Below, piece by piece: positions 236 through 59,076 of a stretch of 64,000 nucleotides of DNA (positions within the stretch are counted from its first letter, which is position 1; every line of letters starts with the position of its first letter). The stretch lies in the NCBI GenBank assembly GCA_951406725.2, contig OX597826.1, positions 26,288,001 through 26,352,000 of the forward strand. The letters are read 5' to 3'. Position numbers and translations under genes: made by a program. The notes under the pieces were generated by a model. That model was not told the DNA's origin, ran no database searches, and saw nothing but the letters and a program-made list of their open reading frames with translations. The DNA comes from Octopus vulgaris. Taxonomy: Eukaryota.

Positions 236-868
236 TTGGGTGGTCCTGAAAGTTCGTGCCGATTTTTAAAGGAAAGAAAAAGGTCAATAAATACTTGCCA
301 TTACAATTTTAAGCAACCAAATACGGACCATTTTGTTGCACAATGCGTCTCCATCTTTCCTTTAACTTGAAAACACTCTCTTCCCAGAATTGAGGTGGTT
401 TCATGGCCAAGAATTCATCAAGGTATCTTTTTACGTCATCTAAGGAATTGTAATTTTTACCATTAAGATATTCTGCAGAGACCTGAATAAGTAGAAATCC
501 GAAGGAGCAATACCTGGTAAATATGGAGGGTGGGGTAACACATCCCAGCCGAGCCGCAGCAATTTTTGTGTGGTATCCAAAGCATCAAGTGCCAAAGATG
601 AACTTTCTTATCTTCCATTTTAAAGGGCTACAGAATTAACGCAGGTTATAAGAACATAAACCTTCTTCCACGAAAAGATAGCTTAAACTGTGCTCTAAAT
701 GGAGGTGTAGTCAAATCCTATTTTATGGACACGAACTTTCCGGACAACCTAATAGTTCAGTTGATAAACGTCAGTAGTGAAATCCTATTTTATGGACTAA
801 ACCATGTTCTAAAATAAGTCGAAAGGTAAGCTGTCATAAATCGGCACAAACTTTCCGGACAACCCATT
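236..868 (-). mobile_element. Internally deleted mariner (DD34D) element with terminal inverted repeats
   Basis: Left end ttgggtggtcctgaaagttcgtgccgattt matches right end aaatcggcacaaactttccggacaacccat as an inverted repeat; a partial extra TIR copy lies at ~727-753. The minus strand encodes a mariner C-terminus (GWDVLPHPPYLPGIAPSDFYLFRSLQN...KLKERWRRIVQQNGPY). Confidence 0.8.
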
Positions 869-1278
869 ATATAAATAAATGAAAAAAGTACAAAACAAAA
901 GAAAAACAAAAACATTTCTGTTATTGAATCGATGTATTTCACCTACAGTATACTCCGTCTGGTTATGTAACAATTTTATAGTCATTTTCGGGTAAAACCA
1001 CCAAGAGAAGAGTACAAGGCCAGCATTTTCGGTGGGAGGAGCCTGGTCGATTACAATCGATCCGGGTTGTCAAATTTTGCTTAGTTTATTAAAACCGAAA
1101 TGTTGTATGGCATAATTTAAATTGGAGCGTAAAGGCAGACGACCTGCTGCTAAGCATTTTGTGCGGCTAATGATTATGCCAGATGGCTGCCTTTCTATGC
1201 ACATGCATAAAATCCTACGTACACAAGCACATTCACAAAGACAAACTGTCACCAGACCACACACCTTCACATGCACAG

Positions 1279-1325
<47 letters not shown>

Positions 1326-2306
1326 TCAACATAGGCACTAACAAACTAACACATCCGCGCATATATATATACATTACATGTATTTCTGCGCGTATCCGTA
1401 TATATATGTAGATATATATTTATACACTTGTCTATAAATCCTTGAAAATGTTTCAGCCCGAAAGCTGCGGCCATGCTGGGGCACCACCGTTGATATATAT
1501 TTACATACACTCTCTCACGCACACACGCATACACATATGCACGTATGCACGTATGCACACACACGCATAAACATCCACCCACGCTCATATACACACACAT
1601 AAAAGATTGTAAAAATTTTAATGTACGACGCTCATCTTCAAATATAGAAACGTCATTCTAGAGTCACCTCCCTTACATTAGAAATTACGTTGTCGTGATT
1701 CGGTCTTGAATATATTTCTCAATCACTAGAAAATGTTTACTTAAAATTGATAATGCTCTCGTTTTCAAGTACGTAAACCCTAAGCAAACTAACTACATAT
1801 AAATCCATATATGAGAGACTAACGACATTCTTCTCGAATGAATTACTGTTAAAGGACGGAGTATGTATGTATGTATGTATGTATGTATGTATGTATGTTT
1901 ATTTTGATTTCTCGTATTGTATTTTCTTTTTATTTCTCGTTTTGTATTTTCTTGTACATGTATTTTTATCTTGTATTTTATTGTGCAGTTTTATTGATAC
2001 GTCCTGTTTGTGTTACATTTTTTCTTGCTTGTTTTTTACCCCTCTGCGAGGTAATTTTATTTTGATTCTCTCGCAGGAAGGCCTCGTTTTGACGAGTCGT
2101 GCCCTGTCTTGCCTTCGAAACACGCTTGAGTCTAACTAGCGACAGCTGATGATTGGGGATTTTTCCTTGTGTAGTATGTCCTGTACTTTGTTTTTCTATT
2201 GTAAAAAAATGTTTTTCCCGTTTTCGTTTCTCGTCCAGTTCCACGTCTCCGTTTTCGTTTCTCGTTGAGTTCTACGTCTAGTTGTAGTATCCTGCACTCA
2301 CATATA

Positions 2307-3585
2307 CGAGGGGCGTTCAATAAGTAATGCACCTGACCCACTTCCCATAGCAGTAGGAAACTTGGCACAGTTATTAGTCTTTTTTTACATAGGAACCACC
2401 CAGAGTTACGCATTTCTCCCATCGTTTCATGCGGCTCTGGAGACCGTTTTTGTAGAAGAACCCAGCTTGGTCCGCCAACCTCAACGTGATTTCAGAAATC
2501 AAGGCTGCATCATCTGGGAAACGCTTTCCTTTCAAAAACAACTTCATGATTGGGAAGAGATGAAAATCAGAGGGTGCAAGGTCAGGAAAGTAGGGGGGAT
2601 GGGGAGGGGTTCATAGCCATACGCCTCTGCTTCTGATCTGGCGACAAGCGAGTTGTGGACCGGAGCGTTGTCCTGCAGGAGGAGGATGCCTTTGCTGATC
2701 TTGCCCCGCCTCTTGATTTTGATAACTTCTCTTAATTTCCTCAAAAGTGAAGTATAATAGGCTCCTGCAATTGTGGTACCCTTTGCCAGGAAATCTGTCA
2801 TCACTACTCCGTCCTGGTCCCAGAAGACTGTGAGCATGACCTTGCCAGCGGAGGGCTGCACCCTTGCCTTCTTTGGAGGGGATGAGTCACGGTGCTTCCA
2901 GTGCATTGACTGGGCTTTGGTCTCTGGATCATCGTGATGGACCCAGATTTCATCCTGTGTAATCAATCTTTTGAAAAATTTTGACTCATCTTCTTGGCAC
3001 ATCTCCAAATTCACCCTCGAGCACTCGACGCGTTCTTGCTTCTGGAAAGGCGTGAGCAACCTGGGAATCCATCTGGCAGACACCTTTTGCATATGCAAAT
3101 GGTCATGAATGATAGTTTCCACAGACCCGGTACTAATCTTGACCTCATGGACTATTTGGCGAATAATTATGCGTCGATCTTCCAAAATGGCAGCCTCAAC
3201 TTGACGGACAGATGCCTCATCAATGGCAGAAGGGGGCGACCAGATCTGGGAACTGTTTCCACAGAGTTCCGTCCATGTTTGAATTCACGATGCCGGAGTT
3301 TTACAAGGTAATATGATGGGGCATCATCATCATAAGTTACTTTCATTTCATCAAAAGTCTCCCGTGGTGTGCGTCCTTTCAAATACAAAAACCGGATCAC
3401 TGCTCGACACTCAACAGGCTCCATTTCACACTTGACTCGGTTTAAACACCTGTAAATCAGAAACCACAATTAATTCAGAGCTGTAATTTGCCACTTACTC
3501 TATATAAATAATTGCACATGCAAAATTTCAGCTAGATCAAACAAATGCAAGTGGGTCAGAGGCATTACTTATTGAACGTCCCTCG
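2307..3585 (-). mobile_element. Full-length (~1.28 kb) mariner transposon, probably irritans-type
   Basis: TIRs cgaggggcgttcaataagtaatgc(a)cctgacccactt / aagtgggtcagaggcattacttattgaacgtccctcg, flanked by TA. Confidence 0.92.
2374..3424 (-). pseudogene. Mariner transposase, frameshifted
   Basis: MEPVECRAVIRFLYLKGRT N-terminus, WIPRLL (WVPHEL-like) linker, ITQDEIWV, LQDNAPVH and C-terminal KRWEKCV; split across ORFs 3167-3469 and 2544-3185 with at least two frameshifts. Confidence 0.9.
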
Positions 3586-3672
3586 TATATATTTATATAT
3601 GCATGTATATATACATGTAGATGTAGGTGCGTACATATATGTTTGTATATATGCATATATTTTATTTATTAC

Positions 3673-3834
<162 letters not shown>

Positions 3835-4064
3835 GACGTGCTACATTCAGTTTTCGCCTACCAAATCTATTCAGAAGACTTTGGTCGGTCCGGGGTTATA
3901 GTAGAAGACACTTGCCCAAGGTAGGGTTGAAACCGGAACGCGAAACTTTGAAGCCAGTGTCAATAATATTCTAGTTCAAGAAAACTAAATTCGTACTCTA
4001 AAATACCATAGAGGAACCCATCAGATTAATATAGAATTGTTTTTCTTATGATGGAGTATAAAAA

Positions 4065-4340
4065 GGCGGCGGGCTAGCAGAATCGTTAGCACGCCGGGCG
4101 AAATATTTAGTGGTATTTCGTTTGCCGCTACGTTCTGAGTTCAAATTCCGCCGAGGTCGACTTTGCCTTTCATCCTTCCGGGGTCGATTAAATAGAGTAC
4201 CAGTTACGGTCCTTGTTTGCCCTCTCTGTTTTTAGCCCTTTGTGGGTAGTAAAGAAATAGGTATTTCGCCTGTCGCGACGCTCGAAGTTAAAATTCCGCG
4301 GTGAAATACTGGGGTGATGTAATCGACTACTCACCACCCG
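4065..4340 (+). mobile_element. tRNA-derived SINE, family A (Meta/MESC-like central domain)
   Basis: Head ggcggcgggctagcagaatcgttagc...gagttcaaattcc (A/B-box-like), then gccttt catcctt cggggtcgat aaa agtaccag. Further copies at ~1020-1190(-), 4567-4790(-), 22001-22210, 22320-22600(-), 23300-23520, 27672-28250, 29587-30370 and 43913-44100. Confidence 0.8.
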
Positions 4341-4464
4341 AATATATATATATATATGTATATATATATATGTATATATATATTGATAGAGAAAGCGGAG
4401 AAAGTAAAGAAAGGGGAAAAAGAAGAAAAACGTGCTGATGAAGAGAGGTTTTACTTGATGCATA

Positions 4465-5190
<726 letters not shown>

Positions 5191-5439
5191 AGCTGCTTAT
5201 ATAAAATAACATAGTCGGTCAAGATACATAACTCTAGAAGTATATTCTTGAGTTACTTCCCTTGAAAAATTTTATCGTTTATTAATTCTTCATTTCCGTA
5301 TCATTCTTCATTGCAAGAAATTTGCATATCCATTCATACCTCTTTCTAATAAATGTCTTTTATCTTTTATTTGTTACAGTCATTACTACAGCGACCATAT
5401 ATATATATATGTATATATATAGAGAGAGAGCAATTAGAA

Positions 5440-5790
5440 AATGGAGGTGGTTCATCTACATTTAGACATAATATTGTCAACTTATTTAATTATTAAAATG
5501 ACAATTACAAGAATATACATACATGTATAACATATTATGCTTTACATATAAAAATATATTAATATATAAAGAAACCAGTAATTATTTAAATATAATATTC
5601 CTTTATATTCCTGTATGTTATATTTTAATACTTACTTGTATCTTTATATATTAATATATTTTATATGTAAAGCATACTATGTTATACATGTATGTATATT
5701 CTTGCAATTGTCATTTTAGTAAATAAATAGACAATTTGACATAATATAATGGCTAAAAGTTGATGAAGCACCTATTGATTCCCTCCATTT
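5440..5790. repeat. Imperfect inverted repeat in an (AT)n-flanked non-coding element (PLE-type fold-back)
   Basis: aaaatgacaattacaagaatatacatacatgtataacata...atatataaaga at ~5495-5572 is the reverse complement of ~5641-5718. Confidence 0.7.
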
Positions 5791-5972
5791 TCTTATGGCT
5801 TTATAAATTAATGTTAAAATATTTCTTTGCCTTCACCCATTTAATACACTAGGTATTGTAATTGCAATGCAATAAAAAACACTTGTCTATTAATAATTGG
5901 GTGTTCTACTAGCAGTATATTGGATAGATATTATCCCTTACTTGGTTGGATTCACAACCTCTAACTTTCTTG

Positions 5973-6036
<64 letters not shown>

Positions 6037-6137
6037 ACATGTATATATGTATATATGTATATATATGTATATAAGTATATATATGTATATATATATATAT
6101 ATCTATAAAATAATATGTTACATTTACTCAATAGTCA

Positions 6138-6200
6138 AGATAAAACTCTGAGTTTCAGATGCCGAAGTGGAAATCCACAACACCATCTCTTCGGTTATCT
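6138..6200 (-). ncRNA. Type I hammerhead ribozyme motif, C4 variant
   Basis: Minus strand: agataa|CCGAAGA|gatg..catc|t|GAAA|ctcagag|UU|ttatct, giving a perfect 6-bp stem I and a near-palindromic stem III. Confidence 0.65.
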
Positions 6201-7029
6201 GGCCATCTGAAAAACGCTATGAAAAAATACCGTTATATAAAGGGAAATTACTGTGTTATAATTCTGCTCGCGACCCACGTGCGTACTTATACGTCACTAT
6301 GAAAACGTACACATCTTCACTCGCATTTTTCGCCAAATATATACGCATATATATACAAACTCATACACACGCACATGCGTACCGTAATAGTTCATACATA
6401 CGTCTATATAAGCACAAGTAGAAGCACAAGAAAAACCATGGTTAAAGGTAACAGAAAAAACATAAGGAAGTATACAAAGCATAAAAACCACGTTCAAATA
6501 TGGATATGCCCCTATGCACTCATACACACACACACGCCCATATGTAGATACCCGCACATATTTATATACGCATACATATACACGCATATACGAAAAATGA
6601 ATATACATATGTCCCCCCCCCAAAAAAAAATGGAAAAATACTAAGTAAAAACGTCTATATATATATATGTGCATTCTTATGCCCGCACACACGCACACAT
6701 CTAAAACTGCCCACTCATACATATTCACACACGTGTACAAATGAATCTATATACACATCTATATAGGCACAGGAAAAAATGCAGGATAGAAAAGTACAGA
6801 AAAATATATATGAAATAATGAAAGATATAATGAGATAAAAAACTTTTTGGGACATAATATAGAAAGCAAGTTCTATCTGTTTTCTTTAGGGGACCAAAAA
6901 CGTAACAAAAATTTAGAGTTTTATCTTGACTATTGAGTAAATGTAACATACTATTTTATAGATAAATTTCCTCTATTTACATAATATTGAGGTCTCTTTC
7001 TTTCTTTTGTTATCTTACCGTTTTTGCCA

Positions 7030-7061
<32 letters not shown>

Positions 7062-7789
7062 ATATAAGTATATATATGTATATACACTACCGTCAGAAAT
7101 TAATTAGCACCCTTGATTTGCTCTTCACTCAAGGTATGTGCTGTCACCTAGTGGCCATATCTCGAACTATTGCTTTGTTGCGAGTTCACTGTTGCGCAGA
7201 ACGATGACGTAACTTTGTTTTCAGAGCAGTTTGAGAGTCTACAGCCTTATGATGTTGACATAGCAGTGCAACAACAACTTGGAGTGCGGATGCAGACAAA
7301 TCTTCCTTTGTATATATATATATGCAATATATACTGATATATATATATATATATCAGAAATATATTATGCTCTCTAATTACGCGGTTGCACAAAAGCAAC
7401 TCACAGTAGAGATATTTGCAATTTATAAGATTTCCTCACGAGACAACTACGATTTCAGTCGGGATGTATACTTCCAGATACAACAGCGTATCACCAGAAG
7501 GTACCATCGAGTCACTTGAACAACATCTGGAAAGATAGCAAGAATATAATGATTATTATCTTTTATGGCCGGTAACAATTTGGCACGGCTGACTGCACAT
7601 TCAGCCTGTTTTGGAGATAGCACCTTTTGGCACTGGAAGCAAACACACTCACGAGCGCAAACCATATACACGTACAGAAACAATGAAAGAGAGAGTGAAA
7701 AAGCGGTAGATAGATGGATAGATAGATAGATAAATAGAGAGAGGGGGGAATAAAGAGGCATTACGCATACTTAAATGCATACTTAATCT

Positions 7790-7975
7790 GGCACTTAGCC
7801 GGTTACGGCGACGAAGGTTCTGGTCAATCCGATCGACGGAGTAAGTTGCTCGTAAAGTTAGTGGTTGAGTAATCTACAGGCATGCGCACTCATAACGTTG
7901 TTCTCAGGGAGATTCAGCGTGATACAGAATGTGATAAGGTTGGCTCTTTTGAATACAGATACTACTCATTTTTGC
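7790..7975 (-). mobile_element. Fragment of SINE family C (related to 44837-45212)
   Basis: Reverse complement matches tcacgctgaatctcccc gagaac...cacgagcaggctgttccgttgat.ggatcaactggaaccctcgtcg. Confidence 0.6.
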
Positions 7976-8082
7976 CAAAGACACAACACATCGAATACCC
8001 TAACCGTTAAGCCACGCACCATGACATACACACATCTATAACTAGATTGTAACACATATAAGCAGAAAGAAAGTGAGTGAGT

Positions 8083-8151
<69 letters not shown>

Positions 8152-9003
8152 CGGAGGAGACAACGAGAGCAACGTTAAAACGTCTGATGTTAAATAAGTC
8201 AAAGTCGAAACAGCGATGGCAAAAGTCGGCGCCTAAATGGCTGTGCCACCTCGTCTCGTAATCCTGAAACTTATAACATGTTTCTGTCAACAAACTCTGT
8301 TGTGACTAGTAAATTTTAAATCTTAATTTCAATTTCATTTCTATTCTGTAATATATGGAGATAAATTATTTAGCAGCCACCTTTTTCTTAAGAAAGTTTT
8401 TTTCCCTCTCTTGGACTAGCATTGCCAAATATGGTATACTTTCCAGTAATTAATGAGTGAGGTCAACATTTCATCTCATTTAAGACCATTCCTTACATCC
8501 TCCGCAACCGTGAAGGTAAAATGAAATCATACCTCTGTTGAATAATTGCTTGCTAATCAACAGATATGAAGTCATTCGTACCGGGTTGTTCGCTTAAATT
8601 GGAAAAGTGAACAATAGACATGCCTGCCTGACTGCCTGACTGCATGTATGTATGTATGTATGTATGTATGTATGTATGTATGTATGTATGTATGTATGTA
8701 TGTATGTATGTATGTATGCATGTATGTATGTATGTATGTATGCATGCATGTATGTATGTATGTATGTATGTATGTATGTATGCATGTATGTATGTATGTA
8801 TGTATGTATGTATGTATGTATGTATGCATGCATGTATGTATGTATGTATGCATGTATGTATGTATGTATGTATGCATGCATGTATGTATGTATGTGTGTA
8901 TGTATGTATGTATGTATGTATGCATGCATGTATGTATGTATGTATGTATGTATGCATGCATGTATGCACGTGCGCACGTCACACACACACATGTATATAT
9001 AGG

Positions 9004-9052
<49 letters not shown>

Positions 9053-9106
9053 TTACAAAGAAAGGGAGAAAGTGGGATTGAGAGAGAGAATGGTTACATG
9101 AATGTA

Positions 9107-9188
<82 letters not shown>

Positions 9189-9226
9189 TATATATATATG
9201 TGTGTGTGTATATATATACATATATG

Positions 9227-9281
<55 letters not shown>

Positions 9282-9730
9282 TCACACACACACACACACA
9301 TATATATATATACATGCGTACATACATACATATTTATATTCTCTCTTCCTATATATATATATATGCACATGGAGAGAAAGGGGGAGAGAAAAGAGAGAAG
9401 GGGGTAGAAGAGAAGGAGAGAGAGAAAGAATCTTGAAAGCAGAGTGGGTGTAATTAGATGAGGAAGTCGAAGTATGAAGAATGTGGAAGAGGAGAGGGTA
9501 GCTGAAGATAGGAACTGGAAGAGGAGGCCAATCTGACTGATTAAATTAAGGCTTTCATCTCAGTGAAACTATCCCCTTCTAGCCAACTATTTAGATTAAG
9601 GGCCGGAGGGTTTTATTTGCATCTTCTGTCTTCAATTCTATCTACTTAATACTTTCTTTCTTATTGTTCTCTTTCTTTGCACCACCACCTCTCACTTTGT
9701 CTCTCTGTCTCTTCACACCATCACACACGC

Positions 9731-9829
<99 letters not shown>

Positions 9830-10033
9830 CACTCTCACTCTCTCTCTCTCTCTCTATTTATCTATCTTTCTGTCTCTCCCTCTGTCGGCCTGCCTGGATG
9901 TCTATCTATGTATCTATTTATGTATGTATGCATGTATGTATGTATGTATGTATGTATGTATGTATGTATGTATGTATGTATGCATGCATGTATTATGTAT
10001 GTATGTATTATCTATCTGTCTATCTATCCATCC

Positions 10034-15242: not shown

Positions 15243-17110
15243 ACTTAGAATAGCTTAGAAAGGTTTTGGCCAGTATTGGCCCAGGCCATGTCTAACTTAA
15301 TAGCACCACCTGGTGAAGTATTTCAATTCGGGATTTGGGTAACAAGGCCCATTGGAGCAGAGAGTTATTGTTTGCGGAGACATATCCGAGTGTGGGTGGT
15401 TTGTCCGGGACTGTTTGAAGGAATTTGTCCAAAATCTTCTTGAATTTTGTGTGGTCAGTTTCTGTTTTGACGTGTCTTGGTGTAATGTTGAAGAAGGCGG
15501 GTCCAATTGAGGTGAAATAATTGTGCCGCAATGTTGTTATGAGATGCGATTGAGATTTTTGTTGTGGACGGATGGCACGGGGTCTAAGTCTTGGATGTAT
15601 TTTGAAGGTGATATCAATATCATTTGGACAGTGCTGATGGAATATTTTCCACATCATACAGATAATGTAGCGTTCACGACGTCGTTGGAGTGAATACAGT
15701 TTCAGCTTTTCTAGTCGATCCCAGTAGTCGAGGTCTGACATGCCATCTATCTTTTTCGTGATTGACCTTTGGGGAGCTTCAACTTTCATAATATTCCATT
15801 TCGTGTAGGGAGACCACAGTGGACAGCAGTATTCAAGGTGAGGTCGGGAAAAAGTGGAGAAGAGAAGGATAATGGTGCGGGAATCTCTCGACTGGAAGGT
15901 TCTGAGAATCCAGGAACACATTCTGCGGGCCATGTCAACTTTGCTGCTTATATGTGTAGCCCAGCTTATGTTGTTGTCCACAGTTACTCCCAAGTCTCTG
16001 ATGTTGTTAGACGTCATGAGAGTTTCACCAGAAGGAAGGAAGTATGGGTGTTTCAGAGCGTCCTCCCTTCCAAAGTGGATCAATTCGAATTTGTCTTCGT
16101 TTAGCAACATGTTGTTCTTTTCCGCCCGTTGGACAACAGCCAGTAGGTCTGACTGAAGGTTTATCCGGCCATCCACGCCATTGATGACCTTCTGGAGCTT
16201 GGAATCATCAACGAAGATTCTGATGTTACTGTGTTTGATGATGTCAGTGATGTCATTAATGTAGATGATGAAGAGAAGTGGGCCCAACACAGTGCCTTGT
16301 GGGACACCACTACTGACTTTGGCTGGGTTGGATTTGACTCCTTCGACTACAACATGTTGTGTTCTGTTAGACAGGAAGCACTTGATCCACTGCAGTAGCT
16401 TTCCAGTGACACCAATATTGGACAACTTTCTCAAAAGGATCTTATGATCAACCCTTTCGAAGGCCTTGCTGAAATCAAGGTAGATAACATCAGTGTTGGA
16501 ACCCTCTCCCAAGGCTCTCAAAATGTCATCGAAGTGATGCAGTAGCTGTGTCAGGCAATCCCTTCCATTACGGAATCCATGCTGGTTGGAGTTCAGCATA
16601 TTATGACTCTCAAGGAAGTGAGTCATACGCGATCTCACCACTCTCTCAAATACCTTAATGATATGAGAGGTGAGTGAGATTGGACGGTAATTCAAGGCAA
16701 GGGATTTGTTTCCTTTTCTGAAAACTGGGACAACAGACTGGGATAGTAGGTTTTCTGGTATATATCCAGCATCCAGTGAGTTCCGCTACAAATTGGCTTT
16801 AGGGGGTGCAAGTTGGTGTTGACACATCTTCAAGACACAAGCAGGGAACCCATCGGGACCTACTGCTGAATTATGCTTCATTTCTTTTAATGCTGCTCAG
16901 ACATCAGGAGCGCCAAAGGTTATGTCCGATAAAGTTTATTGGGGAGTAACATCAGTGATACAGCCCAGATCAGCCACATCAGGATTGCTGAAAACAGAGC
17001 AGTATTGTTTCTGCAACATCTCTCCCATGGTTTTGGCATTGTCTTGAAGAGTACCATTTTCATCAATCAGAGGGCCAACAGTAGAGCCAGTAACTTTGTG
17101 TTGTTTTGCA
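15243..17110 (-). mobile_element. 5'-truncated CR1-group LINE (RT and C-terminal part of ORF2)
   Basis: Uninterrupted 467-codon stretch with NYRPISLTS, QHGFR, YLDFSKAF, SGVPQGTVLGPLLF, FVDD, DLGV, RPHLEYC and LYSLQRRRER; disrupted upstream part VGPLIDENG...QYCSVFS; 3' end with short ttctaag repeats inserted in (AT)n. Confidence 0.92.
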
Positions 17111-25947: not shown

Positions 25948-26516
25948 TATCTAGCAATTTCAGCAATAAATCTCAACGTAACCGACTGTCAACTGAATTC
26001 ACGATGCACTTTCTACGAGATGGAACGGACATGGAAGGAAAGTTGTCTGTAGGAAGTCATTCTTTCCGTTTTCTTTCGCTTCTTAGTAATGAATGAGGTG
26101 AGCGCTTAAATCAATAATATTTTGTTTCGAGATTGGTTTGAAGCTGATGATAGTTTAGTATTTACTCTGATGTATAGAAAAAAATCCAGTATCAAATGCG
26201 AAAACTGGAGCAGCATATTAACTAATATGGTGTTTTCTACTTGAAACATTATATATATTTATTAGGCATACATTAGGTACATCCATGAATGCATATGCTC
26301 ACAAACACAGACAAAGCTCATACATATACGAGAGGGCGCTGAAAAGACTCTGGCTTTGAGTAAAAGAAAATAAAGGGAGAATCATGCTTACCAACCACAT
26401 GGTTTCGGGTTCAGTCCCACTGCATGGCACCTTGGGCAAGTGTCTTCTAATATAGCCTCGGGCCGACCAAAGCCTTGTGAGTGGATTTGGTAGACGGAAA
26501 CTGAAAGAAGCTTGTC

Positions 26517-26564
<48 letters not shown>

Positions 26565-26566
<2 letters not shown>

Positions 26567-26890
26567 CAATTGCAGCGTGGAAGGTGTTTGTAAGCCATTT
26601 AAGAAACACACAAAAGCCGTTCGATTCACTTCAACATTTAAGTTTAATTTGTCAAAATATTTTCGTCGCTATAAGACCGCGACCTGTTCACTGACAAGGA
26701 TTTTTGTCAGTGAACAGGTCGCGGTCTTATAGCGACGAAAATATTTTGACAAATTAAACTTAAATGTTGAAGTGAATCGAACGGCTTTTGTGTGTTTCTT
26801 AAATGGCTTACAAACACTTTCCACACTGCAATTGTTTTCGTTCCAGCACACGATCTCAGATCAAATCACTTGCTATGCAAGTGCATCTCC
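26565..26890 (+). mobile_element. Fold-back non-autonomous PLE-like element with two G3-C8 hammerheads and a ~55-bp tail, inserted in the (AT)n of a family B SINE
   Basis: Near-perfect palindrome 26565-26835 centred ~26699; tail 26835-26890; second family member at 56643-56955. Confidence 0.8.
26703..26753 (+). ncRNA. Type I hammerhead motif with G3-C8 swapped core (mirror copy on minus strand 26648-26697)
   Basis: tttgtca|GTGAACA|g|gtcgc ggtcttata gcgac|GAAA|atat|TT|tgacaaa; 7-bp stem I, 5-bp stem II, palindromic stem III aatatt. Confidence 0.7.
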
Positions 26891-27302
26891 TATATATATA
26901 TATGTTCGTGTGTCTGTGTTTGTCCTCTCACCATCGCTTGACAACCGTTGTTGATGTGTTTATGTGCCCGTAAATCAGCGGTTCGGCAAAAGAGGCCGAT
27001 AGAATAAGTACAAAGTATAAGTCCTGGGGTCGATTTTCTGGACTAAAGGCGGTGCTTCAGCATGGCCACAGTCAAATGACTGAAACAAGAAAAAGAGTAT
27101 AAATGTAACTCTTACTCTCAATTTATCAACGATCCAACACGGCTGTCGATTTTTCTCAATCAAATCGGCTACAAACTTTTATTTCTTGCGATGTCTGCTT
27201 CCAGTCGCCATCTTTGAATCTATTCATTTCTTTGTTACTTGAAGACTACATTAAATTCCACAAATGTATTTTCATGTTTTTTTTTTGTGTTGAATATCAT
27301 AA

Positions 27303-45810: not shown

Positions 45811-45853
45811 TATATATATATGAACAAAATAAGAATAAACAAAAACAAATTAC

Positions 45854-47040
45854 ATGACAGGATGTATGGTGGGTAGCATGGATGTGGTATCCCTATACCC
45901 ATCGATTGACGTAGATTTTGCGGTGGAGAAGTGCATGGAGATGATCAATGAGAGCCAGGTGGAGTTCCGTAATGTCAACACAGGGGAACTGGGCCTCCTA
46001 CTTAGACTGACATGTAACAATGAATACCTAGATAAACATAATCGTAGTAGTTTCTGCCTCAGTAGATGTTTAAGAGGTAGAGCGCCCACAATTACTTTTA
46101 TGGCTAGGAAGACATATATAGAAAGATCGCGCGGATGGACCAGAGACATACGGAGCCCGCAAATGTCCATCAGGTAAAGAAAATGATCGCACATGCACTA
46201 GGAGCTAGTATAAGAGTTACCCTAAAAGGCCACACGTTTAAGTTTAACAATAAAATATATGCTCAGGACGAGGGGGCAGCCATCGGCGTTAGTATTGCTG
46301 GTGATGTAGCCAACCTTTTCATGGTATGGTGGGACAGAAGGCTTAAAGAACGCCTAACACAGAACTCCATACTCGTAAACATGTACTCTCGCTATGTTGA
46401 TGATATCAACATAGTGGTAAAGGCACCCCCACAAGAGAGTACTGTTGATATAGTAATAGAAACTAATACTATAGAGAGCATCCAGCATATAGCTAACTGC
46501 ATCCACCAGAGTATTAAGGTCATAATAGACTACCCCACTAAACACCCCAACCATAGACTACCAGTACTAGACACTGAACTCTGGCTAGAAATTGTGAATA
46601 ATAAAACCCAAATTCTTTATTCATACTATGCCAAACCTATGGCCTCAAAATACTTGATCCACCGGAACTCAGCTATTGCGGACGATGAAAAATTCAATAT
46701 TTTGATGGCAGACCTCGTCAGAATAATGAGAAATGTGTCACGCATGTGTGAGCCTACAGAGTTAAAGAGACACATACAATATTTCATTCACCGCATGCAG
46801 TTCTCAGGTTACAGCCATAAAGAAAGGATCAGAGTATACAAAGGAGCCATGAAAAAATTTGATGATATATTATGTAATGATAGGAATGGGATTTGCCCAC
46901 TCTATAGGAACAAGTCATTGAACACTATAGAAAGGACAAAAAAGAAAATAGGGAAGGCCAACTCTTGGTATGATAGCCATAAATACCAGAGTGTCATGTT
47001 CGTTGACACCACCCCTGCATGTGGCCTATGTAAGCTCATT
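45854..47040 (+). pseudogene. Penelope-like element reverse transcriptase (probably Naiad-type), frameshifted and truncated
   Basis: SMDVVSLYPSI, IYAQDEGAAIGVSIAGDVANLFMVWWD, SRYVDDINI, LPVLD, YYAKPMAS, MQFSGYS and SVMFVDTTP. Confidence 0.88.
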
Positions 47041-47469
47041 CAGCGCACGAGGAACGGAGAGGTGGTATGCCTTCCCACAGATAAGTCCGGCAGGATGTCA
47101 ATAGACAGCTTACCGAACTACATCCAGGCAATGCAACCTCATATCGCCATACAGTCCATAAAGTGCCGGGAAGCAAGCTTCTTGCCACATAGCCACTACA
47201 AAAACTATCAAACCGATTCATACCATATTACCAGTGACACCCACCTAAAATCTGTCTAAGTTTGGTCCTAGTGAACTGTGCTTCCATATGGTCATTAGTA
47301 TGTCTTGGGATGTAGACTCTTTTGTTGAAGGGTAATGTTGTTGGATAAATCCGGCTTATGCAGTAAGATTTGTCACATACGTTGAAGAATTGAGTGTCAA
47401 AGGGGTGGGTATACATGTTAATGGCCTTTCTAGGGTTATCTTCATTATCGTTACTACTATTTCTGTCGT

Positions 47470-47705
47470 TACTGTAATTTGTCTGATTGTTGCATCTGTT
47501 CTATGTGTGGACAATATTTTAATTTCTATGTTGTTGATTGATCCTCCGTGTTCCTGTTCGGCGTGTTGGTACAGAATCGATGAGCTTTTACCTTCCTTGA
47601 GTTGTCTCCAATATATTCATTTACCCGCTCTCCTATGCTTCTTGCCGTTTCCTCTACGTATGTCGTTGTCTTGTTACTGCATCGTCCCTCTATACATCTT
47701 ATACT
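47470..47705 (-). pseudogene. PLE GIY-YIG endonuclease fragment, inverted relative to the RT
   Basis: IRCIEGRCS..TYVEETARSIGERVNE, then after a frameshift SSILYQHAEQEHGG..IKILSTHRTDATIRQIT. Confidence 0.75.
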
Positions 47706-47799
47706 ACAAAGATGTTTAAGAGGTAGACCGCCCACAATTACTTCTATGGCTAGGAAGACACATATAGAAAGATGGCGTGGATGGACCAGTTTTTAAAAT

Positions 47800-48250
47800 T
47801 ATATATATATAATTGCGGTTAGTGTTTTTCGCGTTGTTGTTGTTGTTGTTGTTCGTATTGTTGTTGTTGTCGCAAGTGTTGTCATTGTATCTATTTAAAT
47901 TCCAACGTATTTTTGTGAACGACTTTTCAATCTCGGAGAGGCATTTGATGGTATTCACCTTACTATACATTGCATACTTTGGTGGTAGTTGAAGTATCGA
48001 TATTTCGTCTGGGTCCGATGTTACTCCCCCATAGATGTTCGCTTCATTGTCTTTATTGAACTCTTCTGGTAGTAGGACATCTTCCATAATAATTCCATTT
48101 ATTGTATCTGGATACTTCTGCTTTTCTTCCTTTGCGAGCTCATATTGATGTTTCTATTTCAACCACGATAACTTCCTCTTAAAATGGATATTGCACTGGT
48201 GTATTAATTGTCTGTTTTCTTCATATATTATATCCATTAGTATGGTTTTC
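47800..48250 (-). pseudogene. PLE N-terminal region fragment
   Basis: IYGGVTSDPDEISILQLPPKYAMYSKV...EIEKSFTKIRWN resembles the L.LGPKF motif upstream of the PLE RT. Confidence 0.6.
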
Positions 48251-50617: not shown

Positions 50618-51872
50618 ATCATGTTATTTAGAATGAAATGTCCGATTTTCCTATGCACCAAGTTTGACAGAGGTTAACTCTAATGTTTTATCCTGACAAT
50701 TCTTTGTTTTAGAACGTTGAAGAGTTATATCATCGCTCTTCAAAATGCAATTCATGGTGTCTGGTTATCTTGTGAGTTTCCTCTTGTAAATCAATTTTTG
50801 TGAACTCGCGGATAGATCAAAAGTTCCTGTTGTTTATTAATATCAGTTCCATAGTGGGACCAATGCATCCTAAGCAGTTTGAAACATCAACGAGGTGTTT
50901 GGTGAAGATGTGGCGAATGAGCGCTCTGTACGTCGATGGTTTGGGAAGCTCAAGTCTGGTGACTTTACTTTTGAAAATCAGTCCTGTGGTAGACCTGAGA
51001 TCAATGTGCATAATGATGAACGGGAAACCGTAGTGGAAACGGACACATATCAATCTATGCGTGAGATAGCAGCAAAGTTTGGTGTTTCGATTCCATCTGC
51101 ATTGGACCATCTGAAACAAATTGGTAAGGTAAAGAAGCTGGACAAGAGGGTACCACACGAACTGAACGAGCATCAAATGAAACGTCGTCGTCTTGAAACA
51201 TGTTGTTCATTGCTTTTACGGCATAAAAGCGAGCCATTTTTGCATCGTATTGTTACGTGTGATAAAAAATGGATTCTTTTCAACAATAGTAACCGTTCTG
51301 CACGGTGGTTGGATAGAAACGAAGTGCCAAAACAAAATCCTAAAAATAATATTCACCAAAGAAGCTAATGGTGTCTGTTCGGTGGTCCAGCACCAGTGTC
51401 ATCCACTACAGCTTCATGAGACCAGGTATGCCAATTACAGCGGTTGTATATATCAACCAACTGGATAAGATGATGAGTGAACTTGCAATTAAACAATCAA
51501 GATTGGTCAACAGAGACAGGCCAATTCTATTGCAAGACAATTCTTGAGCACTAGTCGCACAAACAACGCTACTCAAATTACAGGAACTGAAATTGGAAGT
51601 ACTCTATAATCCACCATATCCACCAGATCTTGTACCAACTAACTATCACGTTTTTCAGATACTTTTGCAAGGACAAGTTGCAAAAACAGTCTTTCGAGAT
51701 TTCATCACTTCTTGATCTCCTGAATTTTTCGCTACCGGTATAAACAAGCTACCAATAAAATGGCAAAATTGTGATGATAATTTAGAAGCATACTTTGATT
51801 AACTGCATTGCTTTTTCTTGATAACATAAACTTTCAGTTAAATATCAGACGTTTCATTCTCAAGGATCTGAT
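50618..51872 (+). mobile_element. Near full-length mariner with degraded transposase
   Basis: FGEDVANERSVRRWF..GRP, RVPHEL, IVTCDKKW, LQDN, PPYPPDLVPTNYH and KWQNC motifs; imperfect TIRs tcatgttatttagaatgaaatgtccgattt / atatcagacgtttcattctcaaggatctga. Confidence 0.85.
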
Positions 51873-52255: not shown

Positions 52256-53949
52256 TATAAACGTTGGCATATATTTGTTATACAAAATTAAGGATAAACC
52301 CACTTTAATGATTTTATCAAGTGACCAACGTGAAATGAAAACCCATACAGGTTAACAATTTATACTAATTTATAATTATATAATATAATTATATTAAAGG
52401 GTGCGGATAAACCCCACCAACACGCTAAAAATAGACGTCAAATGCCTTTAAAAACCACATCAACACCCTCTTAGCACCGGTTATAAGCGGACAGATGGAA
52501 AATGAATGGTTACTTTTTTAAAATTAGTTCGCACAACCATATAAATACACTTGCATGTATACACTATTTAAATCTAATTTCCCCCTCTCAACCACGTGGT
52601 TTTACTATCAATATATAATTATGTAATACGCACATACAGACGCATATTTATATTAGATCCTTTTCAACTGATTATCGACTGAATCATACATTCAACGCTG
52701 GAAGAAGAGACATACTCTTCATAAAACGTAAAGAATGAGTCTACATGTTCACTAGACTTGATAAAAGTAGTAACTACATCTCCCCATACTAAAAAGATAT
52801 CAGAAGTGATCAAAGATCTTACTCGAGCCATAATCTCATATGACCAATTTCCAGGATTCTGTGGCGTATATATTCCCATTCTAGATGGAAATCCGTTCCG
52901 TTACAGGATTATTCATTCTTGCCAGCTGAATGCAGTGAAGCTAGATAAAATGATGTATTTTGCTCAAGAACACAATTCGTCACACAGTCTATGAATTGAA
53001 ACCACAATATTACTATCCACTAGACCAATAACCACTATGCCAGACGTCTCCACACTAAATAGAGTAGAGGCCAAATGAAATAATATAATCCAAAGTATAT
53101 TATTCCTTGTAGCTCCTTCCGAAAATAACAAAAAATATCCCCAAACCAAAGAAAAACTGACTGGCACTTAACGCAGGAATGCTTTTCATGATAGGTATTC
53201 CAATCTAGGCCGCCATGTTTGCTAAACCACAACAGAAACATCAGCATCCATTTATACTTACTCTTTATACAGTCTTTCCATAATGTATCGCATATTTTCC
53301 ATACAACATTGGCTTAACTGGAAAACCTTACAATTTAAAGCTCAAATACTGCTTCAATCTTGCCATGAAAAGCTGACAAACGGATCAAAAGACCACATGT
53401 GTCTGGTTGAAGGCAGAATAAAGAGAAAATATAGGTGTTGAGAGACAGACAGAGATAGAAAGAAAGAAGAAAATGTGGTAACAATCAAAGATGGATGGAC
53501 AAGAAGGAATATGTTATAGAAATATCAAATTGTTTGCATATATGTGTGTTTGAGTATGTGTGTGTGAGACACAAAGCATATACACACAAACAAATGTACA
53601 CACACACAAACACATGCCCTAACACACACAAAAACATACTCAGGCACGCACACACCCAGACACATATACACACAAAAATTCGCAGAATTTTCTGTTCTGG
53701 ATCAATTATAAGAATATGGTATGTCCCCCGTAACTTAGCAGTTCGGCAAAAGCGATAGATACGATAAGCACATGAGTCAAAACATAAGTACTAGATTCCG
53801 ATTCGTTAGACTAAAGTTCTTGAAGAAGATGCCCCAGCATTGCCGCGGTCTAAATGACTGAAATAAATAAAAGATAAAGGAATATATATATATATTTATA
53901 TATATATTCCTTAAAGGAATATATATATATATATTTATATATATATATA

Positions 53950-54895
53950 CCAATTAAGGACTGCACACGAAAAGTGGACAGTCAACATGCTAGATATAGA
54001 CGTCAAATCGCCATTCTCCACAAAAAGTTTATGTTCTCAGATCAAACTCAACAAAACCAAAGCAATAAACAAGTGAAAAATATACGAAATAAATATTTAC
54101 CCATGTACTAAATTTAGTTTCAGCTGTTATTTTCCGCAAGGAAAAGTGCAGCATCATCAGCATGGTCCCATATAAAATGTAATTTGCTGGACTAAATGCC
54201 AACACGACACCAAAATATCGCGTGCATGGAGTCCGGCCTATTACATTTGAAATATATATTTCAAATGCCTCTACTTTTGGCGCGATGAGACTCGAGAAAA
54301 CTAGCCTGCAGCTAATAGTTAGCAGCAGTTAATTTATCGGTTAGAGAACAAATATTTATAAAATTAAATTTAGGGTAAAAATTGATATTTATCAATTAGA
54401 ACCAGTGGTCCAGCATATTAAAGAAAGAATCCGAAGATTAAAATATTTATATATACCATCGCGCCAAAAGTAGAGGCATTTGAAATATATATTTCAAATG
54501 TAATAGGCCGAACTCCATGCACGCGATATTTTGGTGTCGTGTTGGCATTTAGTCCAGCAAATTACATTTTATATGGGACCATGCTGATGATGCTGCACTT
54601 TTCCTTGCGGAAAATAACAGCTGAAACTAAATTTAGTACATGGGTAAATATTTATTTCGTATATTTTTCACTTGTTTATTGCTTTGGTTTTGTTGAGTTT
54701 GATCTGAGAACATACACTTTTTGTGGAGAATGGCGATTTGACGTCTATATCTAGCATGTTGACTGTCCACTTTTCGTGTGCAGTCCTTAATTGGTATATA
54801 TAAATATTTTAATCTTCGGATTCTTTCTTTAATATGCTAGACTACTGGTTCTAATTGATAAATATCAATTTTTACCCTAAATTTAATTTTATAAA
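53950..54895. mobile_element. Inverted, circularly permuted ~500-bp HHR-bearing unit (mini-PLE or retrozyme-like)
   Basis: Order B(53950-54285), spacer, C(54355-54454), B'(54459-54794), C'(54795-54893); hammerhead within B/B'. Confidence 0.75.
54579..54643 (+). ncRNA. Type I hammerhead ribozyme with canonical core (mirror copy on minus strand 54101-54165)
   Basis: ccatg|CTGATGA|t gctg...cagc t|GAAA|ctaaatttag|TA|catgg; perfect stem I, palindromic stem III actaaatttagt. Confidence 0.75.
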
Positions 54896-55222
54896 AATTA
54901 TATTTATATATATATATATTCCTTTATCTTTTATTTATTTCAGTTATTTAGACTGCGGCAATGCTGGGGCATCTCCTTCAAGAACTTTAGTCTAACGAAT
55001 CGGAATCTAGTACTTATGTTTTGACTCATGTGCTTATCGTATCTATCGCTTTTGCCGAACTGCTAAGTTACGGGGGACATGAAATTACCAACACTTTTGT
55101 GAAGCGCTGAGGGTTAGAAAAAACCAGGCACTCCCCACGCACACATGCACACACGTATACACACCCACTCACACATATATACATAGATGTATACACACAC
55201 AAACACAGTCGCATATATGTAA

Positions 55223-55481: not shown

Positions 55482-56642
55482 GACAGGTTTTTTTCAGTTT
55501 GTCTTCATAACCACTTCTTACCATACACACACACACACACACACACACACATGGGGAGTGAAACGCAAACATCAATATCGGACTCTCATCAGATGGAGTA
55601 CCCTTCTTGTTTAGCTTTTTAAGCAGATGAATTTACTATATATATATATATATTGACATATACAGACACACACGCATTCACATACACCGGAGAAATGTCT
55701 ATTTTAGTCATACAAATAGTTTACAGACGATTAATAGAAGACCCCTGGGAGTGAGACACCTCTTAGCATTTGTTAAAGCATGTCTCTAGGATAAGGTCAC
55801 TCTGATATAAAACCAGAAATGTAGGGAATAGCTTTGAACATATTCGGGATATTTTGCTTAAACGTGAGATCATGGCGTTCCCGCATTCCTGAGCCGGCAA
55901 TCCATATGTTTCCCTGGTTTGTCTCTAGATTATGTCAATACGGCGGAGGGGGTCTGTGATGTGCTGTGCAAGCTTTATTGAACGTAAAACATTCGGTTGT
56001 GCGATTAACGGTGAGGCGACTTTCCGAAGCCATGGTGAGTAGGAGTTCTCCACTGCGAGTATGGAAGCCGCAGGTGCAAACTCGAACGAAGGCTGAGACA
56101 TCGGTCCTATCGAGAAAGTTTCTCCAACGCACTTTACATATTAGTGATGAGAAGCTGGAGACTGATGTGGATGCCAGCAGAGGCTGGTACTCTAATGTAC
56201 CGACTCCAGCATTTGATTTGTACTTGGAAATATAAAAGTACTTGGAAAAGTACAGGACAAGCTTATTTATACTTAAAATATTGCAGTTATAGTTAAAATT
56301 CAAAAATATATTTAGATTTAAAAACTAAGAATAATAGCTACTCTATAATTAAAAAAATAACTCAAAAAATAATTTGAAGGCTGACTGTTCACAAAAAATA
56401 AAAAATTCAATAGTACAATTAAAAATGTTTTTTTTCAATTGCAAATTTTTAATAACTACTAAAATTCTTAAGTAGTTTTCAATTAAAAATAAATCTTCTT
56501 GGCGGTAGGCTACATAGCCCATATGCTACGAAATGTCGCGTACGGATATGGGAGTATTTAAAAACTCGTAACTGAGGAAACATTTTTAATAAGGCTATTG
56601 TAAAATTTCAAAATTTTTGCTAACAGCTTTAAATTTATTTAC

Positions 56643-56955
56643 GGAGATGTACTCGCATAGCAAGTAATTTGATCTGAGATCGTGTGCTGAAACGAAAACA
56701 ATTGCAGCGTGGAAGGTGTTTATAGGCCATTTAAGAAACACACAAAAGCCGTTCGATTCACTTCAACATTTAAGTTTAATTTGTCAAAATATTTTCGTCG
56801 CTAAAATCCGCGACCTGTTCACTGACAAAAATCCGTGCTGCGGATTTTAGCGACGAAAATATTTTGACAAATTAAACTTAAATGTTGAAGTGAATCGAAC
56901 GGCTTTTGTGTGTTTCTTAAATGGCCTATAAACACCTTCCACGCTGCAATTGTTT
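56643..56955 (-). mobile_element. Second copy of the G3-C8 HHR fold-back family, opposite orientation; HHR on minus strand 56780-56829
   Basis: Same arms and tail as 26565-26890; minus strand reads tttgtca|GTGAACA|g|gtcgc ggatttta gcgac|GAAA|atat|TT|tgacaaa. Confidence 0.8.
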
Positions 56956-57579
56956 AAATTTATTATTTGAGTTAAAATTTTAATTGTAGAGTAGCTAATA
57001 TAATGGTTTTTAAATATAAATATATTTATAAATTTTAACACTAGCTGCAATTTTCTAAGTATTCCAGGTGTAATAACTTAAGATTATTAACCCCCATGTG
57101 TCACATTTTTCATTGTGATCCACTTTTTTCTAGGCAATCCAATTAAATGAATAAATAGTGACAATTAATAATTTGTAATTTTACCTGATTAAAAATTATC
57201 TATTTCATTTAAGACTTTTGTTAAATAATTTTTTGATTATTGTTCATGTTTGATGATTAAATTAAAATAAGATTAAGTATAAATATAAATAAACAAAAGA
57301 AATCAAATGTAAGAGCACTTTAATTACACTGGTTCATTACAAAATCGAAAATTCAGAGAAAAAGAGAAAAATAGAAGAAACCTCACTGTGACACAAGGGA
57401 GCTAACCGTGTATATTTTATATGTTATAGTAGATTATATATAGTTTGATAATTTGGGAATGATATATAGTTGTTTTGAGCAATTGGAGTGTTTATTCACT
57501 CTACCTTTCAATTTATTTCTCCCTTCGCCTCGGTGTCACCTGAGCACTTCCAGCTGCAGTCCTCTTCGGTTTAACGACG

Positions 57580-57629
<50 letters not shown>

Positions 57630-58686
57630 CTTAGATAAATTAGATATGTTTCGACCAAAGATTGGTCCAGTCCATGTCTAACTTAATAGCACCACCTGAT
57701 AGGATTATTCGAATCCTGTTTAAGTCAAGTTTTGTTCAAGTAGTGAGTTCTTGTTGGGTGAGTTGTATCCAATTATGGGTGGCTTATCTGGTATTCTTTG
57801 AAGGAATCTATCCAGACTCCGTTTAAAGTTGATGGGATCCTTTTCCTCTTTGATCTCCCTCGGGACAATGTTAAATAGGGCAGGGCCTGTTGAGCAAAAG
57901 AAATTATGTTGCAGTGTACATGTATATTGTGATCTTGAATTGGGCAGGGGACGTATGGCCCGTGGTCCCAGTCTTGGATGAACCTTGAAGCTAATTTTAA
58001 GGTCGTTTGGGCAATGTTGGCGGTATATTCTCCACATCGTACAAATGATGTACCGCTCACGGCGACGCTGGAGGGAGTAGAGTTTCAAGGCTTTAAGGCG
58101 ATCCCAATAATCGAGAGCAGCCATGCCTTCAATTCGTTTAGTGAGTGCCCTCTGGGGTGACTCAATTCTGGAGATGTTTTGTCTTGTATGGGAAGACCAC
58201 AGTGGGCAGCAGTATTCAAGGTGTGGCCGAACAAGGGAGGAGAAAAGTGGTATGATGACACCTTGTTTTCTGGACCGGAACTCATCCTACGAGCTATATC
58301 GACCTTCTTGTGGATGTGTGCACTCCAACTGAGATCGTCATCAACAATTAAACCCAGGTCTCTGATATTGTTAGAGGCTGTGAGCGGTTCCCCTGAAGGA
58401 AGAGAGTATGGTTGTTTTAGTGAGGAATTTCTTCCAAAATGCATCAGCTCAAATTTTCCCTCATTCAGTTGCGTTTTGTTTCTGTCTGCCCATTGACACA
58501 CAGCATATAGATCAGACTGGAGTTGAGTTCGGTCTGCTTCTTCATTGACGATTTGCTGGAGCTTAGTGTTATCAGCAAATATTTTCACTTTGCAGTAATG
58601 TACGACACTGGAAAGGTCGTTTATGTAAATTATGAAGAGTAGCGGACCCAAAACAGTCCCCTGGGGAACACCGCTGGTGACTTTTG

Positions 58687-58690
<4 letters not shown>
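57630..58690 (-). mobile_element. 5'-truncated CR1-group LINE, related subfamily to 15243-17110
   Basis: SGVPQGTVLGPLLFIIYIND, FADNTKL, DLG and LYSLQRRRERY with frameshifts; shares the 3' motif caggtggtgctattaagttagacatgg; inserted in (AT)n. Confidence 0.9.
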
Positions 58691-58725
<35 letters not shown>

Positions 58726-58727
<2 letters not shown>

Positions 58728-58829
58728 AACGAATCGCCTTTCGGTTTAACGGCGTTATATATAAATATATATATATGTATATATATTTAAAATCTTAGGG
58801 TAGCAAGAATATTCATCGTAAAATTCTTA

Positions 58830-59040: not shown

Positions 59041-59073
<33 letters not shown>

Positions 59074-59076
<3 letters not shown>

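Follow-up and report, generated by a model that had tools for sequence, protein, structure and literature searches.

The window analysed here, a stretch of 64,000 nucleotides of Octopus vulgaris DNA, contains two fold-back insertions, A and B, each composed of two head-to-head copies of one unit of about 200 nt that are read outwards from the centre (Table 1). In both insertions the short arm ends at the same point, aacaattg, corresponding to codon 11 of a frame that belongs to a Penelope-like element (PLE), and the long arm reaches codon 29-30, that is 54 nt further in A and 54-57 nt further in B. The arms of A do not overlap and join at 26697/26698; those of B overlap by 2 nt at their inner ends, the short arm starting inside stem II of a hammerhead motif. 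Two internal differences were counted over the 133 positions shared by the arms of A (98.5% alike) and none across 116 nt in B (100% identical), while the long arms of A and B agree at 182 of 192 aligned bases, with one gap. The original prediction, made from the letters alone, of the same arm-plus-tail architecture occurring twice, with a common short-arm end, a continuation of about 55 nt on the long arm and different fold-back points, is borne out, all the described features being present in A and in B. Neither insertion has an internal ORF: each consists of two inverted ends only. Both arms of A carry a rare T at 26730 (5-9% of depth among family copies) and both arms of B carry the loop peculiar to B. 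Because the arms thus share insertion-specific letters, each pair must derive from one template or have been homogenised later. An AT-rich or (TA)n target with a short duplication is a mark of PLE pseudo-LTRs (pLTRs): A lies in a (TA)n tract, so that its duplication is unreadable, and B is bordered by a 12-bp direct repeat that is probably a target-site duplication of 9-12 bp. The optional tail on one of two inverted pLTR arms, another such mark, is present in both insertions. The repeat flanking A, which we take to be SINE-like, has 10 further matches within the window for its left part and 7 for its right part.

Table 1. Positions of the two insertions, their component parts and a related decayed element in the window.
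Feature	Position	Strand	Remarks
Left flank of A	26380..26564		interspersed repeat ending in (TA)n tract; insertion target
Insertion A, short arm	26565..26697	-	pLTR, hammerhead through codon 11 of PLE frame
G3-C8 hammerhead, A short arm	26648..26697	-	G3 26691; stem I 6 bp; predicted cut 26655/26654
Insertion A, long arm	26698..26890	+	pLTR with tail
G3-C8 minimal type I hammerhead, A long arm	26703..26753	+	stem I 26703-26709/26747-26753; G3 26710; C8 26715; bulged G 26717; stem II 26718-26722/26732-26736; G12 26737; palindrome 26740-26745; U17 26746; predicted cut 26746/26747
5' UTR, hammerhead to start codon	26754..26802	+	49 nt, between motif and ATG
First 29 codons of PLE frame, A	26803..26890	+	ATG at 26803; 90% identical to P0043 residues 1-29
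One-sided tail of A	26837..26890	+	codons 12-29, 54 nt
Right flank of A	26891..27095		remainder of (TA)n tract and of left-flank repeat
Decayed, rearranged PLE	45842..48240		same protein clade, different family
Left copy of probable target-site duplication, B	56628..56639	+	12-bp direct repeat
Insertion B, long arm	56640..56841	-	pLTR with tail (tail about 56640-56696)
First 30 codons of PLE frame, B (P0001)	56641..56730	-	ATG at 56730
G3-C8 minimal hammerhead, B	56780..56829	-	G3 56822; 8-nt loop II
Insertion B, short arm	56840..56955	+	starts inside stem II; no first core box
Right copy of probable target-site duplication, B	56953..56964	+	12-bp direct repeat; bases 1-3 are equally compatible with the element

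Hammerheads were sought on both strands of the 64 kb with a descriptor that accepted any Watson-Crick pair between residues 3 and 8. Exactly three sites were returned, against 0 in 60 second-order Markov copies of the window, and all three are complete minimal type I hammerheads located in three of the four arms. Only one complete core, not two, is present in B, whose short arm starts inside stem II and has no first core box. The motif runs from stem I (7, 6 and 7 bp for the cores with G3 at 26710, 26691 and 56822, respectively) through the first core box GUGAACA, an extra G between A9 and G10.1, stem II (5 bp) and GAA to the AAUAUU palindrome, U17 and the strand that closes stem I. The residues U4, G5, A6, A9, G12, A13, A14, A15.1, U16.1 and H17 are present in these cores and fixed in the three sets of public contigs described below, and the hallmarks of min-HHR are found, namely stems I and II, the bulge at 9/10.1, the G10.1-C11.1 pair and a palindromic helix III region. 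In place of the canonical C3-G8, all three complete cores have G3-C8, with which Watson-Crick pairing between residues 3 and 8 remains possible as G-C. Loop II reads GGUCUUAUA in both arms of A and GGAUUUUA in both arms of B. Rfam gave no match of any kind at gathering score in the window, and no hammerhead at E up to 10 around A; this is weak negative evidence, because it also missed a canonical minimal motif behind another PLE (L013). The GUGAACA core with its stems in both insertions, the difference in stem II loop and the place of the predicted cut at 26746/26747 had all been correctly anticipated, as had a compensatory core that searches built on CUGANGA would miss: it is family-wide, absent from the 56 published representatives considered below and missed by Rfam.

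The frame opened by the ATG of each insertion runs to the end of the tail. It contains the motif [FY][SND]TR..I, which matches residues 9-14 of three complete PLE proteins recovered with the reverse transcriptase (RT) of the window; matches of this kind were obtained in 1 of 5000 shuffles, in 2 of 1500 for the best-three-of-all statistic and in 0 of 816 other ATG peptides. Both candidates returned by a direct search with the frame are gene models, P0043 of O. sinensis and P0044 of O. bimaculoides, which begin with the frame of the unit at 88-90% identity and continue for 140-190 more residues. Residues 1-11 of P0043 also align to the short arm of A (26598-26566, tblastn). Beyond the unit, the frame of P0043 continues into the PLE N-terminal domain, and its N-terminal 220 residues are homologous to complete proteins with RT and endonuclease. 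A pLTR that ends inside the start of the element's own ORF is typical of endonuclease-bearing PLEs, and this is the arrangement found here. With codons 1 to 29-30 of a PLE ORF at the end of the unit, its Penelope origin is established and not just inferred, so that the signature first read from the inverted pLTRs and the one-sided tail is upheld by arm ends lying inside a PLE frame, as in Pen2a (PMC3846280). Judged from its sequence, the unit is a PLE pLTR end made up of the hammerhead, a 49-nt UTR and the start of the frame. The PLE relatives have a C-terminal endonuclease and TDKSG, in place of the N-terminal GIY-YIG and DKA that go with the lack of a canonical hammerhead in Naiads; since the endonuclease is C-terminal, they are not Naiads. 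Searches aimed at the rest of the element returned little: phmmer with the 31-residue frame gave 0 hits among 1.84 billion representatives, P0043 residues 1-222 gave no full-length protein among 563 candidates and nothing useful in Atlas, and no full-length element with the octopus pLTR was recovered. Pfam gave no name for P0003, P0009, P0014 or P0016, and PDB weak RT matches only. The 20-nt core pattern had four matches in metagenomes, all due to chance and without the rest of the motif, and 0 in viral contigs, where PLE proteins were likewise absent from the candidate stretches (0 of 23 and 0 of 28).

P0043 (XP_029654200.2) is annotated as 223 residues of PLE N-terminus fused to a host SAM-dependent methyltransferase, which is either a mis-annotation or a chimeric transcript driven by the pLTR. 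A pyrimidine tract followed by CAG at 26836-26846, just past the short-arm end, resembles a splice acceptor in the tail; no spliced joint is listed there. The window also contains a decayed PLE whose pieces are scrambled in order, RT lying on the plus strand and the N-terminal and endonuclease parts on the minus strand; the RT (46.1-47.3 kb) is broken and shows 92% identity to a record from Octopus vulgaris. This element was rejected as the parent of A and B, as it has no DNA match to the unit and 30% identity to P0043 residues 137-223. Two more fold-backs, at 53882-54899 (arms of 351 nt, 99%) and 59063-59954 (arms of 287 nt, 97%), each have a third, partial spacer copy beside them and (TA)n at the outer end. 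They look like PLE-type inverted insertions of other families, and no hammerhead was matched in them by the descriptors. Translations at 2544-3469, 50817-51368 and 309-584 presumably represent remnants of Mariner/Tc1-like transposases, and we take 15292-16785 and 57720-58786 to be LINE reverse-transcriptase frames on the minus strand, the first of them open over 497 codons.

The family to which A and B belong is widespread: at least half of the sampled long-arm words were found in 19 of 24 public runs, under four organism labels, and X20, X22 and X24 contained small shares of them. Contigs were aligned to 26672-26915 at 80% likeness in three contig sets (labels B, C and A, with 7386, 10902 and 1299 contigs), and summed depths gave crude bounds, which are not copy numbers, of 6,452-200,000 in X3, 2,041-63,265 in X4 and 323-10,000 in X12, a set whose RNA label is a guess. 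A raw-read run, X23, contributed 0 reads and does not count as a test. In the three contig sets, no variant reaching 3% was seen at G3 (26710), C8 (26715), U17 (26746) or any of 18 core and helix III positions. Common variants are located in loop II (26728, 26730), at a base immediately flanking stem I (26701), and in the UTR and frame, and the one common stem change, 26749 A>G in stem I (10-17%), keeps a G.U pair. Subfamily variants fall at 1 of 42 structured sites and at 10 of 150 other sites (p=0.26, or p=0.08 if the change that keeps the wobble is counted as tolerated), which makes selection on the fold no more than a trend. CpG decay also strikes stem II, at 2-7%, and none of the 12 stem pairs is changed on both sides among the four near-identical arms. 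The expectation that stems would be preserved better than loops therefore survives as this trend, with no covariation. That of a young family fits the two copies, given the likeness within each arm pair, but does not extend to the family, which is not new since it occurs in two or more named Octopus species and under three organism labels. Loose contig ends define two family-wide 3' ends, near 26832 (16 contigs) and 26890 (104 and 122 contigs in two runs), which match the short-arm and long-arm ends. At the opposite side, loose ends accumulate at 26698/26702 (71+76, 84+109 and 12+8 contigs in the three sets); the junction contigs share just 13-16 nt upstream of 26698 and then pass into unrelated AT-rich DNA (agreement about 0.5), which points to a fixed RNA 5' end. 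Other copies display opposite-strand joints from 26698/26702 to 26733-26796, with the second arm variably shortened. Two further irregularities were noticed, a joint from 26823 to 26700 at depth 1587 in X4, which may represent a tandem array, and a 40-nt step back in the tail (26840-26879) in X3 and X4; together they suggest tandem or duplicated subfamilies.

Folding of the motif was assessed by prediction. Within a single arm, stems I and II have formation probabilities of 0.68-1.0. In the fold of lowest energy, G3 is paired with U17, which lengthens stem I (-13.8 vs -12.4 kcal/mol); this predicted pair resembles the inactive 3-17 trap of hammerheads discussed in PMC3884650. The six pairs of helix III are all A-U, and the gain of a swapped dimer over two monomers is only 0.6 kcal/mol. 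An RNA crossing both arms of A is predicted to form a 133-bp hairpin whose stability exceeds that of the hammerhead fold by about 72 kcal/mol (by 39 at B), which makes cleavage at 26.7 kb unlikely. The claim of a ribozyme encoded on both strands there is right for the DNA, but read-through RNA of either strand is predicted to be a hairpin, and the two-strand ribozyme is probably silent at this site. Because the genomic copies extend upstream of the cut site, their templates were uncut. Work on related ribozymes bears on whether the octopus core can cleave at all: the engineered C3G/G8C double mutant partly restores cleavage (PMC8495972), also in the hammerhead of the PLE PAc (PMC11167929), minimal PLE hammerheads are slow even as dimers (PMC6765202), and the PAc ribozyme requires the protein for cleavage, although insertion of PAc did not need cleavage and no RNA ends were seen at its cut site (PMC11167929). 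The two octopus changes are confined to one tertiary pair and are complementary, which we estimate to be unlikely in a decaying motif, at about 1 in 200 or less. We lean towards weak but real cleavage by the octopus hammerhead.

A second G3-C8 motif was found outside the octopus family. The bacterial genome bin G001 holds at least six animal-type PLE contigs, which are host contamination, and the 3' UTRs of six PLEs of G001 were scanned for hammerhead motifs. On the minus strand of L012 (G001:C31; positions about 325 to 283), an unrelated PLE frame is followed, 16 nt beyond its stop, by a G3-C8 hammerhead-like motif with an A bulge, a 7-bp stem II, the palindrome ACGU, C17 and a stem I of only 3 bp; this motif had no equal in 4000 shuffles, and its minimum-energy fold keeps stem II and not stem I. 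The notion that G3-C8 requires a base other than C at 17 was ruled out, L012 having C17. The 3' region of a third PLE, L013, contains a canonical C3-G8 minimal hammerhead at UTR position 350. Rfam gave nothing relevant on L007, L012 or L013, and missed the canonical L013 motif. Another animal-DNA contig of the bin, L005, retained as a clade relative from 76 candidates (1 of 76), has a hammerhead-like motif at 2535-2577 (plus strand), 228 nt after the stop of a PLE of the octopus family's clade, with C3-G8, A5, U15.1-A16.1, the palindrome UGAUCA and A17. It was matched by 0 of 3000 in two controls, using a descriptor relaxed after this motif had been seen. Since G5 and A15.1 interact, the L005 core has possibly co-varied. 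The 3' UTRs of L009, L010 and L011, three of the six, gave no hammerhead-like match; L009 and L010, two copies of one PLE family, share a conserved long-range inverted repeat of about 17 nt in the UTR.

The octopus motif has much in common with the metazoan PLE min-HHR (PMC4209133): its location in the pLTR, the single base between A9 and G10.1, the G10.1-C11.1 pair, the 5-bp stem II, a palindrome in the 15-16 region that, like that of Drosophila Penelope, has a 2-nt insert, U17, which is common in Fig. S3 of that paper, and dispersal in thousands of copies, some of them close together in opposite orientation. It differs by its G3-C8 core, the 56 representatives of Fig. S3 comprising 53 CUGA, 3 UUGA and 0 GUGA, by a stem I of 7 bp instead of the usual 4-5 bp, and by a bulged G where the published consensus is not G, with one exception (PMC4209133). 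The natural covariation reported at the 3-8 pair is U3-A8 (PMC4209133, PMC3088659). The octopus core is like those variants (Perreault et al. 2011) in being a natural covariation at this pair, but combines a purine at 3 with a pyrimidine at 8, a transversion swap that the accessible text of PMC3088659 does not report. In the literature covered, G3-C8 appears only as an engineered mutant and no octopus PLE hammerhead is described, a provisional statement as large surveys of PLE hammerheads may list such a core; the available portions of the supplements of PMC4209133 and PMC8557442 contain no such G3-C8 sequence.

Among individual elements, Poseidon of Anolis, PAc (Frangieh et al. 2024, PMC11167929), resembles the octopus family in having a hammerhead at the pLTR-ORF junction, AT-rich targets and two 3' ends inside the frame start that define the tail, and the C3G/G8C double mutant engineered in PAc is the natural state in octopus. 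The two differ in the position of the ATG (56 nt after the predicted cut site in octopus, inside stem II in PAc), in the location of the ends (about +33 and +90 of the frame in octopus) and in the tail (54-57 nt vs 30-40 nt; PMC11167929, PMC8557442), as well as in protein clade (CX4CxxC linker). In Pen2a of Adineta vaga (Arkhipova et al. 2013, PMC3846280), the pLTR contains the initial 12 codons, the tail extends to codon 22, and an inverted pLTR and a 9-bp target-site duplication are described. The octopus unit likewise is a pLTR of about 200 bp with the first dozen codons, an optional tail on one inverted pLTR and head-to-head junctions, the duplications being 8-10 bp in this type of element, but the octopus insertions are without any internal ORF. 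The same pLTR-plus-tail structure, again minus the internal ORF, corresponds to that described in PMC8557442. Set beside the Nematis/Neptune-type PLEs with C-terminal endonuclease (Craig et al. 2021, PMC8557442), the octopus relatives show an extended segment separating RT motif A from motif B (about 125 residues in P0014), and their placement in a clade is provisional.

We regard it as probable that A and B, both head-to-head pairs of PLE pLTR ends, each arose in one event with two reverse transcriptions of one uncut RNA, and that the hammerhead cleaves weakly, as a dimer or with the element's protein. AT-rich DNA is cut and extended on both strands by the PAc protein, which begins reverse transcription at two internal sites in the frame start; the stretch between these sites is the tail (PMC11167929). 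By analogy, the octopus PLE protein would nick both strands of an AT-rich target and start reverse transcription near codons 11 and 30, one site per strand; one start would yield the short arm and the other the long arm with its tail, the two arms meeting at their 5' ends. The transcription start would then be the 5' end that the copies share, about 13-16 nt upstream of 26698, and the abundant units of about 200 nt would be run-off copies from the initiation site nearest the mRNA 5' end and not a separate element. In the RNA, the G3-C8 swap would leave residues 3 and 8 in a Watson-Crick pair, by which the 2'-OH of residue 8 is kept in position. Two copies may pair via the AAUAUU palindrome to form helix III, and cleavage after U17, 56 nt ahead of the ATG, would take off a capped leader of about 65 nt. 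Against this scheme, the homogeneity of the arms could also stem from gene conversion, and self-priming on an antisense template has been proposed as another route to head-to-head junctions (PMC3846280).

The same PLE pLTR might instead carry a hammerhead that is dead or of negligible activity, G3-C8 being a founder trait and the fold at most a protein-binding or translation element. The stems show no significant excess conservation and no covariation, the G3.U17 trap and a very weak helix III would hamper cleavage, all the observed copies come from uncut RNA, PAc inserts without cleavage and Naiads thrive without canonical hammerheads (PMC8557442). We nevertheless consider such inactivity unlikely, if still a serious possibility, in view of the remaining core bases and both stems, intact family-wide, and of a swap that is exactly the known rescue pair and recurs in the unrelated PLE of L012. 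It seems quite improbable that G3 originated as the final base of a splice acceptor, with C8 changing later so that the pair was regained. In favour of this origin, the sequence before the core, a U-rich tract and then CAG at 26708-26710, reads like an acceptor, and a precedent exists in Drosophila virilis Penelope, where the intron end overlaps helix I (PMC4209133). Most copies begin only about 25 nt upstream of G3, which is too short for an intron; no spliced joint is listed in X12, and the G3-C8 core of L012 is without AG at the corresponding place.

Sharp shared 5' and 3' ends and very high copy number would also be expected if the unit had a transcript of its own and were a non-autonomous derivative, SINE-like or retrozyme-like, that a PLE protein mobilises in trans. 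The X4 joint, if it is a tandem array, and the finding that longer copies are broken or chimeric agree with this, and retrozymes have been argued to derive from pLTRs (bioRxiv 10.64898/2026.07.22.740005). However, the unit ends where a pLTR and its tail are expected to end within the frame, longer family copies continuing through the frame exist in two species, and 4 of the 7 frame variants that are neither CpG nor private are synonymous third-position changes. Moreover, both window copies are inverted pairs and not the tandem head-to-tail units of retrozymes, and we find a derivative of this sort doubtful. An origin of the fold-backs as ends of DNA transposons (MITE or foldback elements) or as assembly artefacts, with a chance look-alike for hammerhead, is hardly credible and largely refuted by the unequal arms with their different junctions and one-sided tail, by arm ends inside a PLE frame, by opposite-strand joints in an independent run and by a descriptor without a match in 60 control windows, even though long near-perfect inverted repeats also mark MITEs, palindromes can be mis-assembled and Rfam finds no hammerhead.

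The element itself and its fold-back-plus-tail form belong to known biology; what appears to be new is a natural G3-C8 core fixed in a high-copy family, plus a second, independent case in L012. On the preferred reading of one event with two reverse transcriptions, A and B offer a clean in vivo picture of the priming at two sites on two strands that was proposed from PAc. Support for the tertiary 3-8 pair of the active hammerhead came from an engineered rescue mutant, by now a textbook case, that has this G3-C8 pair, and the natural fixation of G3-C8 together with its recurrence would complete a natural covariation series at this pair. Searches with descriptors fixed on CUGANGA would thereby be shown to undercount the most abundant genomic ribozymes. 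Tentatively, and with somewhat less than even confidence, we propose that swapped or co-varied cores form a regular, overlooked class of active PLE hammerheads, that G3-C8 copies number thousands to tens of thousands in octopus genomes, that the swap arose more than once, in octopus and in L012, that the L005 core in a clade relative is a further deviant, that PLEs listed without a hammerhead were perhaps searched with CUGANGA, and that such variants tune cleavage down and thus spare uncut template RNA. What PLE hammerheads are for can be approached through a family like this one, which prospers despite a core that is presumably slowed and all of whose copies derive from uncut RNA.
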